DNA from: a virus
Direction: 5' to 3' (one strand)
Length of the DNA: 64,000 nucleotides
Virus record (IMG/VR): IMGVR_UViG_3300042881_004673
Location: 1-64,000 of that record
Shown: in pieces, positions 33,566 through 61,043 of the stretch
Layout of the letters: every line of letters begins with the position of its first letter
Numbering within the stretch: the first letter of the stretch is position 1
Notes under the pieces: model-generated
Told to the model about the DNA's origin: nothing
Seen by the model: only the letters and a program-made list of their open reading frames with translations
Databases searched by the model: none
Position numbers and translations under genes: made by a program

Positions 33566-34042
33566 ATGAACCTACAAGAATCTATAAGAAGAATATTAAG
33601 AGAAGAATTTAATGAAGATAAGAATCTTTATGGTGAGAAATTAAAACCATGTTCAAGAAATCCAATGACAGGGTTTTACAAGGATGGGTATTGTAGAACA
33701 GGAAATAATGACACAGGAAGTCATACGGTGTGCGCAAAAGTAACAGAAGAGTTTTTAGAGTTTACCAATTCAATGGGGAACAATCTTGATATGTTGGAAC
33801 CTGGTGACAAATGGTGTTTATGTGCAAAAAGATGGGAAGAGGCAAACAAAGAGGGAGTTGCTCCTGAAATGATTAAAAGTTCAACAAACATTAAAACATT
33901 AAATATAATTGGTGGTATTGAACAAGAACTTGATGAATACGCAAGAACACTTAAAAACGCAAGACAACAGGGGGTTGGGTTAAGATTCCCAAAGTCGGCA
34001 ATAAAGGCAAACCCAGCAAGGTTTAGGCCATACAACAGGTAA
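33566..34042 (+). CDS. Leader-bearing DUF2237-family protein
   Basis: MNLQESIRRILREE; CSxxPMTGFYxDGYC, HTVC, PGDKWCLCA. Confidence 0.85.
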   Translation: MNLQESIRRILREEFNEDKNLYGEKLKPCSRNPMTGFYKDGYCRTGNNDTGSHTVCAKVTEEFLEFTNSMGNNLDMLEPGDKWCLCAKRWEEANKEGVAPEMIKSSTNIKTLNIIGGIEQELDEYARTLKNARQQGVGLRFPKSAIKANPARFRPYNR

Positions 34043-34043
34043 T

Positions 34044-34208
34044 ATGAAAAAAATAATAAGATTAACAGAATCAGAACTTATTTCATTAGTTAAAAGAGTA
34101 ATGAAAGAAGGTGAACTTACAGAAAAATGTTGGGCAGGATATACTCAAAAAGGTATGAAGACAATGTTTGGTAAGAGATACCCTAACTGTGTTAAGAAGA
34201 CAAAGTAA
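34044..34208 (+). CDS. 54-aa leader plus Cys-peptide protein missing from the ORF track
   Basis: MKKIIRLTESELISLVKRVMKEGELTEKCWAGYTQKGMKTMFGKRYPNCVKKTK. Confidence 0.85.
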   Translation: MKKIIRLTESELISLVKRVMKEGELTEKCWAGYTQKGMKTMFGKRYPNCVKKTK

Positions 34209-34209
34209 T

Positions 34210-34842
34210 ATGTCATATTTAAATGCAAACCTACCAATAATTAACTGTTTAATTAGAAACGAATTTTTATTTAACCATAAAAAAGGAAATGGTGAATTTA
34301 CACCATGTGATGTTCATTCGGTTGCATCGATTCAAGGGAGAACACCTTTATTTGAGGCATTCTTGGAGAACGGAGTAAATTGGACACGAAGACCAATACA
34401 CGCATTTGTATGGAAAGAAGATGCGGAAGTATTAGATTTAACTGAACATATATATTGGGATTGTTTTAGTCCTTACATTGACGTAAAAGTTAGGGAGAGA
34501 CTATCAGGTTTAAGAGCCGATTTAATATCAATCACTGGAGTTAAAAGAGTGGGAACATATCTATTCACACTTGATTGGTCTCACGAAAATAGAAACAATC
34601 TTGATTTAGGTTTTTCTGAAACACCTGAACACAAATGTGGTCACGTATTCAAAATGGATAATGGTAATTATTTTATTTATCCCAACAACAGGATAATTTG
34701 GTTTGACAGAGCTTGGACATTTAATAGGATAGATAAGAATCCTGGTTATGAAATAGATTTAAATATATATTCGGTGGAGAATAAAACATATCACACTACA
34801 GATTATTCATACATGACTGAGTTCGCCAAAGATAACGAATAA
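34210..34842 (+). CDS. Conserved hypothetical phage protein
   Basis: Start moved to ATG 34210 (MSYLNANLP); WDCFS, EHKCGH, YPNNRI. Confidence 0.7.
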   Translation: MSYLNANLPIINCLIRNEFLFNHKKGNGEFTPCDVHSVASIQGRTPLFEAFLENGVNWTRRPIHAFVWKEDAEVLDLTEHIYWDCFSPYIDVKVRERLSGLRADLISITGVKRVGTYLFTLDWSHENRNNLDLGFSETPEHKCGHVFKMDNGNYFIYPNNRIIWFDRAWTFNRIDKNPGYEIDLNIYSVENKTYHTTDYSYMTEFAKDNE

Positions 34843-34857
34843 AAGACATTTTAAATC

Positions 34858-34889
34858 AATCTTCACTTAAAATGTGAGGATTTTTTTTT
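34858..34889 (+). terminator. Intrinsic terminator followed by TATTTAT motif
   Basis: AATCTTCAC/GTGAGGATT hairpin plus T-run. Confidence 0.7.
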
Positions 34890-34910
34890 ATCTAAGGTAT
34901 TTATAATAAT

Positions 34911-35558
34911 ATGAAACACCTAATTAGAAAAATATTAAAAGAGGAGGTAAATAAGAAATACCCAAAACCAACACCAAACGTTGAAAAACTAATATATAAT
35001 TGGTTAAATAACTATTTTTCAGGATCTAAAATGTATCAAACAAAGGACTATGCGTTTAGCTATACTTTTGAATGGTGTAATAATGGTATGGAAATAGCTC
35101 AAGCTATTATAGATTTTAACCATGATCACGATGCTTGGGATGACAAAAGAAAAACAAGTGAACGAAATTTTGAATCAGGAGAATTTTCAATACCTGAAGA
35201 TATTATAGATGATTTAGAAACTGATATACCGGTAAGAAGAAACTATTTAAGATATATTGTAGAAGAATGGTTTGAAGATACATTGTTAGAAAAAATCAAA
35301 AGTGCATTGGGAAGAAATGATATATCAATAGATGATTTTTCTGAACACCCTAAAAAGTCTCAAGTTTGCGTTCCTCCTGTTTCAAAACCTGAAGGGGTTA
35401 CAGATGATGAAATGATTGATTTTATTGTCAAAAATACTTTATTTAGAAGAGATGAGTTAGAAAAAAGAATTGTAGATGAACGTGAATGGTTGGAAAAATT
35501 ATATACAGATAAACTGCGTAGCTCAGAAGTGGATAGAGTAAGAGGAAGTAGATGGTAA
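34911..35558 (+). CDS. Leader-bearing hypothetical protein
   Basis: MKHLIRKILKEE. Confidence 0.75.
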   Translation: MKHLIRKILKEEVNKKYPKPTPNVEKLIYNWLNNYFSGSKMYQTKDYAFSYTFEWCNNGMEIAQAIIDFNHDHDAWDDKRKTSERNFESGEFSIPEDIIDDLETDIPVRRNYLRYIVEEWFEDTLLEKIKSALGRNDISIDDFSEHPKKSQVCVPPVSKPEGVTDDEMIDFIVKNTLFRRDELEKRIVDEREWLEKLYTDKLRSSEVDRVRGSRW

Positions 35559-59034: not shown

Positions 59035-59214
59035 ATGAATAATGAACAAAAGGCCGAAAAGTATAATCAACTAATGTATGAATATACAAAAACACAAAAC
59101 AAAATTTCCTCAATCAAGGGTGAATCACTTAATTTAAACGAAAACCAACTAAAAGAAATAAAACTTCTTGAGGGTAAATTGGAGTTAATTATGAGAACCG
59201 CATCTTTTTTATAA
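59035..59214 (+). CDS. 59-aa coiled-coil protein missing from the ORF track; paralog of 680..856
   Basis: MNNEQKAEKYNQLMYEYTKTQNKISSIKGESLNLNENQLKEIKLLEGKLELIMRTASFL. Confidence 0.65.
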   Translation: MNNEQKAEKYNQLMYEYTKTQNKISSIKGESLNLNENQLKEIKLLEGKLELIMRTASFL

Positions 59215-59259
59215 AGATTTTAATTATTTTAAGTATTTATACATATAAAATAATGTATC

Positions 59260-59736
59260 ATGGGTCAATTTATAGTTTCTGAAAGTGAAAAAAAACAAAT
59301 AAGACTTCTTTATGAGGTAAACAAACCATTACCACAAGCATCAAATTTTGTTAAGACTTTGGCAAGATATTTAAACATAGAACCAAGCGCTATAATTGGT
59401 CTTGATTGGTCTTTATATAAAAATGATAATGACATAAAAACACAATTAGTTAATCTTTTTGAAACATCAAAAAAAACCGTAACTAACAAAATTAACAATG
59501 TTAAACTTAATACTTCACTATTTAATGTCTTAAAGCAAAAATTAATTTCATATGTTCCAAATGATGCAACAAAAGAACAAAAAGATTATTTTGATGAAAT
59601 AAAAAAAGGACTCACAACAGATCAAACAACCACAACAGTTAAACAAAATCAACCAACTTCAAATGTGTATAGCTTTGATAGCTTCCAACCAACTCAAACA
59701 AAACCCACTTTATCGAGATTTCAATCACTTATTTAA
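59260..59736 (+). CDS. Leader-bearing hypothetical protein
   Basis: MGQFIVSESEKKQIRLLYE; TATTTAT at 59234. Confidence 0.7.
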   Translation: MGQFIVSESEKKQIRLLYEVNKPLPQASNFVKTLARYLNIEPSAIIGLDWSLYKNDNDIKTQLVNLFETSKKTVTNKINNVKLNTSLFNVLKQKLISYVPNDATKEQKDYFDEIKKGLTTDQTTTTVKQNQPTSNVYSFDSFQPTQTKPTLSRFQSLI

Positions 59737-59810
59737 ACATAATACATAAATTTAATTATAGTTATATTAAAATATTTAGTTTATGGTATATTTATATATA
59801 AAAATATTAT

Positions 59811-60146
59811 ATGATAAATGAGTCAGATATAAAAAGAATAGTTAAAAAAGTAAAATCCGATAATATAAATGAAGGATTATTTGACACGTTTTTTGGTCGT
59901 GGATATTCTGGATACGCAAATGACCTATCAGAAATTATGGAAGATCTTATTTCTAACGTATATTATGATAAAAATTTAATTGCGTCAGTTAAAAACCTTT
60001 ATTACGATATTAAAGATTCAAATCTTGACAGAAGACAAAAACAAGAATTAACCGATATTATAGGTGGATTATATCAAACTTTAGAAAGTTCAAAAAATAA
60101 TTTAGAAAGATATCTTAAAAGAATAGAAAGATTAAATAGAATATAA
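59811..60146 (+). CDS. Leader-bearing helical protein
   Basis: MINESDIKRIVKKV...INEG. Confidence 0.72.
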   Translation: MINESDIKRIVKKVKSDNINEGLFDTFFGRGYSGYANDLSEIMEDLISNVYYDKNLIASVKNLYYDIKDSNLDRRQKQELTDIIGGLYQTLESSKNNLERYLKRIERLNRI

Positions 60147-60153
60147 AAAAATT

Positions 60154-60321
60154 ATGGGATTTAAAATATATATTACGGAAAAACAATTAGACGTGGTTCT
60201 TAAAGATTTAATGTTAGTTGAGCAATATCCTCTATTACCAAATCAAGATACCCCACAATTAACCCACATTAAAAAAAAGAAAATAATGCCAGTCCCTAAT
60301 CCGAAGAAATATTCAAAATAA
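60154..60321 (+). CDS. 55-aa leader plus basic peptide, missing from the ORF track
   Basis: MGFKIYITEKQLDVVLKDLMLVEQYPLLP...KKYSK. Confidence 0.6.
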   Translation: MGFKIYITEKQLDVVLKDLMLVEQYPLLPNQDTPQLTHIKKKKIMPVPNPKKYSK

Positions 60322-60482
60322 AGAGTCTGCGCTAGACTACTAAAAAAACATGTGTCAGAATTTAAAAAAGTAATCTACGCTTTTGGTTTAACTAAAGGAT
60401 TAAAATAAACAAAAAACGATAAAGTAATTTATTAAAATAAACTTTTAAAAATAAATAGATATTTATATAAAAAACAAAAAAA

Positions 60483-61043
60483 ATGGGAAAAAAAATTAGA
60501 CTAACAGAATCTGCATTTCATTCTTTAATTAGAAGACTTGTTATTGAAACTAAAGAAAAAATGGACGACGAGGATTCGGATCATGATGATATGGACAATG
60601 AAAGTGATTACTCAGAAATGAGTAAGGAAATGGCGGTTAAAAAAATCTCCACTTATCTAAAAAGACGACTATCAAAAAATCAAGAAGAAAAATTAAAAGA
60701 TAAAATACAAGATAAAATAGAAATAGAGGAGTCAAGAAGAAGATATGGTAGATATCTAAATGAAGAGGATGACGAAGATAAAAATTTATCATCAAGAAAA
60801 TCTGACCGTAAAGAAAAAATTGTAATTGGGGCTGGCGCTGGTATATCAGTAACAGGAGCGGTTGCAGCACTTGGATCAATTATGGGTTATTCCGAAAGTC
60901 AATTGACAAGTTTAATTCACGATATTACAGCAAATGCTGGTCTTGGTAATTTTACAGGTCCTGTAACATACGCTATGATTGCCGCTGGTATAGCACTACT
61001 ATTTAAAGGTCTTGATATGAAACATAGAAGAAAAAACTCTTAA
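60483..61043 (+). CDS. Leader-bearing acidic protein with two Gly/Ala-rich hydrophobic helices
   Basis: MGKKIRLTESAFHSLIRRLVIE; internal IEE-SRRRY and LNEE. Confidence 0.78.
   Translation: MGKKIRLTESAFHSLIRRLVIETKEKMDDEDSDHDDMDNESDYSEMSKEMAVKKISTYLKRRLSKNQEEKLKDKIQDKIEIEESRRRYGRYLNEEDDEDKNLSSRKSDRKEKIVIGAGAGISVTGAVAALGSIMGYSESQLTSLIHDITANAGLGNFTGPVTYAMIAAGIALLFKGLDMKHRRKNS

Follow-up and report, generated by a model that had tools for sequence, protein, structure and literature searches.

The question raised by the DNA described here is why dozens of apparently unrelated genes in one phage should begin with the same few amphipathic leaders, and what such leaders might do. The stretch analysed, hereafter the window, comprises bases 1–64000 of a single 80,391-base virus record (IMG/VR IMGVR_UViG_3300042881_004673, here G000), with a G+C content of ∼29%. 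An earlier reading of the window from its letters, the original prediction, divided the leaders into four related classes (A–D), most of them lying between positions 33566 and 61043, and proposed that they address a large and exchangeable set of proteins into the prohead for delivery at infection. That interpretation is supported by the present analysis, all computable checks agreeing with it. On balance, and by analogy with phage T4, the leaders are probably capsid-targeting propeptides of a T4-type head-assembly system, much enlarged.

Leader classes in the window

Strict patterns recovered 28 leader open reading frames (ORFs) in the window, all on the plus strand (13 of class A, four of class B, five of class C and six of class D; Table 1), and the leader coordinates of all four classes in the original prediction hold. 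Class B was defined by the start MNLQE, class C by the pattern LI[RK].ILKEE and class D by MK[IV].[IL][TS]E. An unbiased grouping of N-termini was also performed on the 123 genes of G000, by local alignment of the first 26 residues and with the 99.9th percentile of shuffled N-termini as the threshold. One similarity group took in 35 of the 123 genes, a number that agrees with the 35–40 or so leader ORFs that had been predicted. This single group unites classes A–D with a set of looser relatives, and the leader classes are related through intermediates.

In the class A leader a few hydrophobic residues at the start are followed by a T-E-S-D helix cap and then by a basic/hydrophobic helix. Six positions (M1, R6, L7, T8, E9 and E22) were invariant in an alignment of the 13 class A proteins, and no alignable similarity was found among these proteins beyond approximately residue 22. 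The remaining classes end in the same manner, class B with L-R-E, class C with L-K-E and class D with I-T-E, and in each of them conservation stops at [IL]-x-E. The observation of the leaders in the window is confirmed.

Conservation of the leader and of its closing motif

A codon-by-codon comparison was made of 154 distinct DNA copies of the class A leader. The encoded residues were nearly invariant while the synonymous codons varied, with switches between codon families for leucine (TTA/CTT/CTA/TTG), arginine (AGA/CGT/CGA) and serine (TCN/AGT). As the peptide is kept while the codons change, and is kept across 8,744 protein clusters and in diverged phages (see below), selection acts on the leader peptide.

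The closing triplet began with I, L, V or M in 154/154 copies, had K, N, R, S or M at its variable second position and ended with glutamate in 150/154 and with aspartate in none; residue 11 of the leader, by comparison, swaps between Asp and Glu (143 to 9). E9 owes part of its invariance among these copies to the search pattern, which required L-[TS]-E, whereas E22 lay outside the pattern. Conservation collapsed directly after E22. The end of conservation at [ILMV]-x-E, as first noticed in the window, was found in every class. Such a pattern, with P3 hydrophobic, P2 free and P1 strictly Glu, is that of the site of the T4 prohead protease gp21. The T4 capsid-targeting sequence (CTS) has 10–19 residues, of which residues 8 and 10 govern processing, and Asp at P1 blocks processing but not targeting (PMC9026906). 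A like design is seen in the T4 records: IPII and IPIII carry a 10-residue peptide ending in ...FIAE, IPI carries one of 19 residues ending in ...TITE, the first residues of Alt are MELITE, and the cut in gp23 follows ...FLTE.

Distribution of the leader and the source phage

Nearly identical DNA was found in lake-water metagenomes of 20 studies, with ≥92% of sampled words in each; G000 is thus a recurrent freshwater phage and no accident of assembly. Its completeness was estimated at 28% (CheckV), which gives a full genome of ∼290 kb. The source is an uncultured lake-water phage of the T4 superfamily, of whose genome the window is roughly a quarter. Five tRNA genes lie in the remainder of the contig (L001), together with further genes with leader-like N-termini. 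When the 20 largest of the contig's other ORFs were scanned against PHROGs and Pfam, none matched a capsid, portal, terminase or protease family, as is explained by the contig being only part of a genome.

The leader extends far beyond this phage. A metagenome search with the product of gene 47134, scored on residues 1–40, returned 47 proteins in which the leader was almost identical and the bodies were unrelated. A pattern scan of IMG/VR yielded over 248 confirmed loci, some of them on contigs as long as 293 kb, with 176 class A genes. A class A profile of 40 columns, run on 1.84 billion cluster representatives (clusters at 50% identity), matched 8,744 proteins at E ≤ 0.001 and 782 at E ≤ 1e-10, a significance far beyond chance for a set of that size. 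The motif was N-terminal in 146 of the 150 best matches. The profile scan proposed with the original prediction therefore recovers thousands of unrelated proteins, matched almost always at residue 1. The leader was near-identical across phages whose capsid proteins are 62–66% identical. Among GenBank phages (50,697 records) no match was found by tblastn up to E 10 for the one tagged protein used as query or for the 25-residue leader, and a literature search returned no leader motif strings.

Among the large leader-bearing relatives are G001 (290,887 bases, 99% complete), G002 (93%), G003 (293,850 bases, 100%) and G004. G000 and G003 have many syntenic orthologues at 30–80% identity, and the first 30–40 kb of G003 are the counterpart of the G000 leader array. 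By capsid protein, the closest cultured relatives reached only 42–43% identity over part of its length; they were Microcystis phage Mel-JY01 and Flavobacterium phage 'immuto'.

A T4-type head module with the protease and its sites

A prohead protease, one of the checks proposed with the original prediction, was present: the gp21-family domain PF03420 scored above its curated cut-off in all four relatives tested (G001–G004), and was absent from the 28%-complete G000. The protease is 34% identical to T4 gp21, with the blocks ELNHP and G[IV]SSRG[VL]GS in common. In G003 the head module runs Portal_T4, a 236-residue protein, a 149-residue protein, Peptidase_S77 (G003 66961–67680), a 484-residue acidic scaffold and Gp23, an order that matches T4 20-67-68-21-22-23 (PF07230 and PF07068 were matched). 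The module recurs in G001, G002, G004, G005 and G006. The gp23 capsid protein was detected in 5/5 relatives and in 6/21 further leader-bearing fragments; the latter is about the share expected, as these fragments are each 15–37% complete. When T4 proteins from two T4 regions were compared with G003 by BLASTP, only gp20, 21, 23/24, 25, 5, NrdA and PseT were recognised.

The second check concerned I-x-E sites in the head proteins themselves, and these were found in the capsid propeptide, the protease N-terminus, the 236-residue core protein and the scaffold. In six relatives L-[IL]-N-E↓[SA] is conserved at residues 57–60 of the capsid propeptide (the arrow marks the putative cut), 14–15 residues ahead of FPI[VI]RRV, a block aligned with the beginning of mature T4 gp23. 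The protease N-terminus reads ...GILIE or ...GILVE, the core protein begins ...KIE or ...LIE, and NLIE↓S and SINE↓S are conserved in the scaffold. Two untagged genes of the array, 54615 and 58161, start ...ILLSIVE and ...IIMTLNKE respectively, and their homologue lies inside the G002 head cluster.

Payloads and exchange of leaders between them

The payload types named in the original prediction were recovered, the HExxH protein less firmly than the others. Gene 33566 encodes a full DUF2237 domain (PF09996) that begins at residue 19, from which it follows that the leader is an add-on. The VanY/M15 domain of 47964 is PF02557 and the phage lysozyme domain of 24962 is PF00959, while the HExxH protein of 39965 gave a weak match to the metallopeptidase proabylysin (E 0.02). 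Hydrophobic hairpins are visible in the translations of 48577 and 60483. Most payloads belong to no known Pfam family.

The product of 42147 was modelled with AF2 (pLDDT 79), giving a low-confidence helix at residues 3–21 that stands apart from a well-folded body. In VIA-align the body (residues 25–173) matched DarT with Z 8.8 over 137 residues (rmsd 3.9) and Tpt1 with Z 8.6 over 98 residues (rmsd 2.6), and nearly all of the 50 matches listed were proteins of the ADP-ribosyltransferase (ART) fold; Foldseek against the PDB gave weak ART matches, the best at E 0.07. As modelled, the body has the ART fold. T4 Alt is annotated as an ADP-ribosyltransferase in the T4 record, and an ART fold like that of Alt, a peptidoglycan peptidase and a lysozyme are cargo types that fit packaged or ejected proteins.

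The payload family of 42147 comprises 107 clusters, most of which carry a class B-type leader. The same payload was also found behind a class C leader (P0159), a class A leader (P0145) and class D-type leaders (P0090 and P0151), and without any leader (P0153). Leader classes are thus interchangeable on one cargo, which would be expected if they were address tags but not if they belonged to a fold.

Internal leaders, candidate polyproteins and C-terminal tails

A second, internal copy of the leader was present in 22 of the 150 top profile matches, and copies close to the C-terminus occurred as well. The internal copies were mostly preceded by [LIMV]-x-E, as in ...M-S-E↓S..., ...L-A-E↓S... and ...V-K-E↓S.... 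The modules of the 1057-residue class C protein (Table 1) start after M-N-E↓S, L-R-E↓S, I-M-E↓S, I-N-E↓S, M-N-E↓S and I-N-E↓S, and three of them open with ES.(D/G)KSE(D/N)(K/N)K.... These joints are of the same site type as that of the capsid propeptide and suggest that the protein is processed into several pieces.

An Arg/Tyr-rich C-terminal tail, such as ...E↓SRRRRYRNY or ...E↓RYRRRNYRRRY, was seen in a subset of class A proteins (at 56742–57068 in the window, in L018, L021, L036, L039, L046, L049 and L078, and in P0023, P0030, P0044 and P0046). Of 149 distinct class A proteins of the loci 13 have such a tail, and it follows [LIMV]-x-E in 7/13. It could be a second, C-terminal propeptide or a DNA-binding tail; T4 Alt, too, is trimmed at its C-terminus.

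A promoter-like motif and the exchange of cassettes

The motif TATTTAT was found within 45 nt upstream of 42/123 genes of G000 (3.6 expected) and of 95/386 genes of G003 (7 expected), with peaks of the spacing to the ATG at 4–6 nt and 13–19 nt. Nearly all tagged genes of G000 have it upstream, either singly or, where they form a tightly coupled run, ahead of the run's first gene. In G003 it stands before the portal, core protein, protease and scaffold genes, and also before genes of the adjacent minus-strand block at 73–80 kb, downstream of the capsid gene. TATTTAT is a strong promoter-like motif, putatively a late promoter, and the spacing of 4–6 nt would imply near-leaderless mRNAs.

Terminator-like hairpins were enriched between 43000 and 61500 (15, vs 5.2 ± 2.3 in shuffles), several of them directly before promoter–leader units, and the DNA of some neighbouring leaders in the window is nearly identical. 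An 11-codon class B stub (MNLQENIQSIR, then a stop) at 40562–40597, just before gene 40603, looks like the remnant of recombination at a leader. Gene shuffling mediated by PeSL (promoter early stem-loop) units is documented in the hyperplastic regions of T4-type phages (PMC2839356), and by analogy the cargos here were likely exchanged as promoter–leader cassettes.

Proposed mechanism and alternative explanations

If the leaders are capsid-targeting propeptides, the tagged proteins would be made together with the head proteins, and the amphipathic leader would dock its cargo onto the scaffolding core of the prohead, so that the cargo is enclosed as the shell forms. A candidate docking site is an invariant block, KNEEY..KLNEVA.FN.NLAY..RLFTEH, in the C-terminal domain of the scaffold. 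A gp21-family protease, cutting after Glu in [L/I]-x-E, would remove the leader at [ILVM]-x-E22, with an additional cut possible at L-T-E9. The freed cargo would stay in the head and exit with the DNA at infection, and long tagged proteins, or those with internal leaders, would be cut into several cargos at like sites.

A number of points weigh against this account. Presence in virions, leader cleavage and delivery to the host are all postulated by analogy with T4, and the G000 contig itself lacks a protease, scaffold or capsid gene, so that those parts are known from relatives alone. The motif [IL]-x-E is short and the proteome is rich in Glu, Ile and Leu, giving a background of 0.0125 per residue. 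Comparison of leaders A–D with the CTS of IPI, IPII and IPIII revealed only the initial M-K and the closing I-x-E in common. The leader is moreover twice the length of the T4 CTS and far more conserved than that substitution-tolerant sequence, being near-identical between phages whose scaffolds are 38% identical; such extreme conservation could reflect a different, very constrained partner. TATTTAT precedes many untagged genes as well and marks a large class of genes. The class D leader is short and has TATTTAT only 4–6 nt from its ATG; the demands of near-leaderless translation may contribute to its conservation. Finally, 28–35 tagged genes per 80 kb, some with membrane-type hairpins, far exceed the number of cargo types known from any studied T4-like head.

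The main surviving rival, which we consider improbable without being negligible, is that the leader is a retained docking helix that binds many proteins to one partner (the baseplate or tail, a phage-made assembly or a host structure) and that no scaffold loading takes place. One very constrained partner is what extreme conservation on a helix suggests, leader genes adjoin baseplate gp25/gp6-like genes in 15/80 loci, and the internal and near-C-terminal copies would be needless for a pure N-terminal propeptide. However, conservation halts exactly at a protease-type [ILVM]-x-E with a strict Glu, and internal copies lie mostly behind another [LIMV]-x-E. The complete relatives all have a Glu-specific head protease, with the same type of site in their capsid propeptide, and the leader in the AF2 model, at low confidence, is detached from the folded body.

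The families met most frequently at the 80 leader loci were the baseplate gp25/gp6-like proteins and a Clp-type ATPase. The latter, a Clp-type AAA+ ATPase of ∼680 residues, lies near leader arrays in 13/80 loci (L047 5385–7421 on the minus strand, L048, L052 and 10 others).

A role of the leader as a tag for a modifying enzyme, in the manner of ribosomally synthesized and post-translationally modified peptides (RiPP-like), or for an exporter appears very unlikely. Double-glycine leaders follow the pattern L-S-x-x-E-L-x-x-I-x-G-G, which the spacing L7-T8-x-x-D11-L12-x-x-I15 resembles, but Arg/Lys-Arg occupies the place of Gly-Gly, and none of the non-structural gene families occurs with the leader in over 15/80 loci. 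Peptidase_C39 (PF03412) was found in none of G000–G003, three of them 93–100% complete, in a search that covered phage genes, host exporters lying outside it. With R/K-R for G-G and no C39 in G000–G003, a double-glycine leader was rejected as the sole explanation. A radical-SAM tag was likewise rejected as the sole explanation, there being no PF04055 in G000–G003 and no constant neighbour enzyme in the 80 loci.

Least probable of all is a DNA cassette (terminator hairpin, TATTTAT and first codons) spread by recombination with a peptide that has no function, for despite the enrichment of hairpins in 43000–61500 and their place before several promoter–leader units, the near-identical DNA of neighbouring leaders, the stub at 40562–40597 and the known PeSL shuffling (PMC2839356), 154 copies keep the peptide while Leu, Arg and Ser codons change, and it is kept in 8,744 clusters and in phages with capsid proteins 62–66% identical. 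The codon data of the 154 leaders led to the rejection of a DNA-only repeat as the sole cause. Cassette shuffling is likely the route of cargo exchange and not the whole explanation.

The reading of the leaders as capsid-targeting propeptides can be extended to the whole group of phages, a proposal that we regard as plausible but rather less secure. In a clade of ∼290-kb T4-like phages from lakes and the sea, one near-invariant 22-residue address and three interchangeable shorter classes would load thousands of proteins (at least 8,744 class A clusters), including polyproteins cut at their joints and C-terminal propeptides of the type [LIMV]-x-E↓R/Y-rich. If this is true, these phages inject proteins on the scale of the effector repertoire of a bacterial secretion system, with plug-in exchange by way of promoter–leader cassettes, and giant relatives of T4 in the environment have expanded its internal-protein trick by an order of magnitude. 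The tagged proteins would then likely be anti-defence and host-takeover effectors. The tag would provide a sequence handle for thousands of candidate virion-delivered proteins in metagenomes, most of them without a known family and otherwise unrecognisable, and also a well-defined peptide for the packaging of proteins in phage capsids.

Features of the window

The tagged genes and their close associates are collected in Table 1.

Table 1. Leader-tagged and associated genes of the window (positions in the window; aa, amino acids; the arrow marks a putative cut)
Position	Strand	Feature	Remarks
14646..14954	+	Class D (MKILLTE), 102 aa	Outside the interval of the original prediction
24962..25876	+	Class D (MKVSLTE) + phage lysozyme domain (residues 159–298)	
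33566..34042	+	Class B (MNLQE...RILREE) + complete DUF2237 from residue 19	
34044..34208	+	Class A, 54 aa	Leader is the first 22 codons, end VMKE
34911..35558	+	Class C, 215 aa	Heads five-gene coupled run behind one TATTTAT
35558..36004	+	Class C, 148 aa	
36004..36327	+	Class C, 107 aa	
36327..36761	+	Class C, 144 aa	
36745..39918	+	Class C + 1057-aa candidate polyprotein	∼100-aa modules after [LIM]-x-E↓S at residues 286, 393, 613, 717, 817, 915
39965..40561	+	Class B + HExxH protein (weak proabylysin match)	
40603..41520	+	305-aa protein, internal class B copy (..NLKE↓SIRRILREE..) between two domains	
42147..42668	+	Class B-type leader (helix 3–21, low confidence) + predicted ADP-ribosyltransferase-fold body (25–173)	
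42665..42994	+	Class B, 109 aa	
44825..45544	+	Class A, 239 aa	TATTTAT upstream
45861..46226	+	Class A, 121 aa	
46252..46599	+	Class A, 115 aa	
47134..47778	+	Class A, 214 aa	Query of metagenome search
47964..48533	+	Class A + VanY/M15 peptidase (residues 101–185)	Terminator-like hairpins upstream at 47789–47816, 47867–47879
48577..49110	+	Class A + acidic region + hydrophobic hairpin, 177 aa	
49113..49607	+	Class A, 164 aa	Tightly behind 48577
49632..49919	+	Class A, 95 aa	
51178..51504	+	Class A, 108 aa	
51633..51929	+	Class A, 98 aa	
52026..52826	+	Class D, 266 aa	C-terminal module common with 52823, 55799
52823..53665	+	Class D, 280 aa	
54615..55094	+	Array gene without A–D leader, paralogue of 58161	Homologue in head-gene cluster of G002
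55799..56233	+	Class D, 144 aa	Terminator-like hairpin 55749–55773 and TATTTAT just upstream
56742..57068	+	Class A, 108 aa	C-terminal tail ...VAE↓SRRRRYRNY
57144..57728	+	Class D, 194 aa	Terminator-like hairpin 57095–57115 and TATTTAT upstream
58161..58640	+	Paralogue of 54615	Homologue in G002 head module, 28% identity, E 1e-14
59811..60146	+	Looser leader relative (MINESDIKRIVKKV...)	In the 35-gene group
60483..61043	+	Diverged class A + acidic region + hydrophobic hairpin, 186 aa	

Several other genes were noted in passing. An 818-residue protein encoded at 62105–64000 and on to L001 2561 combines a signal peptide and Cys-rich repeats with a C-terminal domain resembling, by eye, the type IX secretion sorting domain; this resemblance points to a host among the Bacteroidota. 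The genes at 18478–21276 and 21351–23510 encode paralogous proteins of 932 and 719 residues with very long Thr/Pro repeats and a common ...SPANCC end; TATTTAT stands before both and glycosyltransferase-like genes lie on the flanks, and in G003 a Thr/Pro-repeat protein sits between the terminase and portal genes. Three small proteins with lipoprotein-type signal peptides (MKK...L..SC), at 2262–2504, 5293–5517 and, on the minus strand, G000 69275–69775, form an N-terminal similarity group of their own that is unrelated to the leaders. A 442-residue UvrC-like protein with a GIY-YIG-type N-terminus, recognised by eye, is encoded on the opposite strand at 26546–27874. A 938-residue protein at 29120–31936 has the leader-like start MKDLVIQILTEE; its N-terminal half is 65% identical to an ORF of G003 and shows DHH-phosphoesterase-like motifs by eye, and the protein had no PHROG match.

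Comparison with known systems

The cargo-loading peptides of encapsulins attach to the shell protein itself; they usually sit at the C-terminus and stay on the cargo. They resemble the present leaders in that a short common peptide sends unrelated enzymes into a shell of the HK97 fold, and there is no homology between the two systems.

In phiKZ, 201phi2-1 and SPN3US a gp21-related protease cuts inner-body or ejection proteins after Glu (PMC9026906). These phages have in common with the present ones a large capsid, many head-internal proteins, cuts after Glu and several sites per propeptide (PMC9026906), and differ in that the head module is not T4-type, the cleaved proteins have no common leader and the motif has few determinants besides Glu.

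The PeSL cassettes likewise consist of terminator hairpin and promoter units that flank small non-essential genes and may allow modular shuffling (PMC2839356). Unlike the early sigma-70-like promoter of PeSL, the TATTTAT motif described here is held in common with the head genes, and the repeat reaches into the coding region as a selected peptide.

The closest likeness is to the internal proteins of the T-even phages, a diverse set with only the CTS in common (PMC3012670). Like IPI, IPII, IPIII and Alt of T4, the tagged proteins are unrelated to one another and carry at the N-terminus a short propeptide closing with [L/I]-x-E; the T4 head module with its gp21-family protease and a putative ART-fold cargo add to the resemblance, and the tagged genes, like ipI–III, occupy a variable region close to a tRNA cluster and to lysis genes. 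The leader is longer here (22 residues against 10–19), has another sequence and is nearly invariant across the clade. At least four interchangeable leader classes are present, with 28–35 tagged genes per 80 kb against a handful in T4, and internal second leaders and a candidate polyprotein occur, in a system known so far from its genes. Because the sequence of the leader is unlike that of the T4 CTS, it would be a functional analogue or a very distant variant of it. We conclude that the system is of the kind of the T4 CTS and its internal proteins, from which it differs by a different and longer leader, by several interchangeable leader classes, by a far larger set of cargos that extends across the clade and, probably, by polyproteins.

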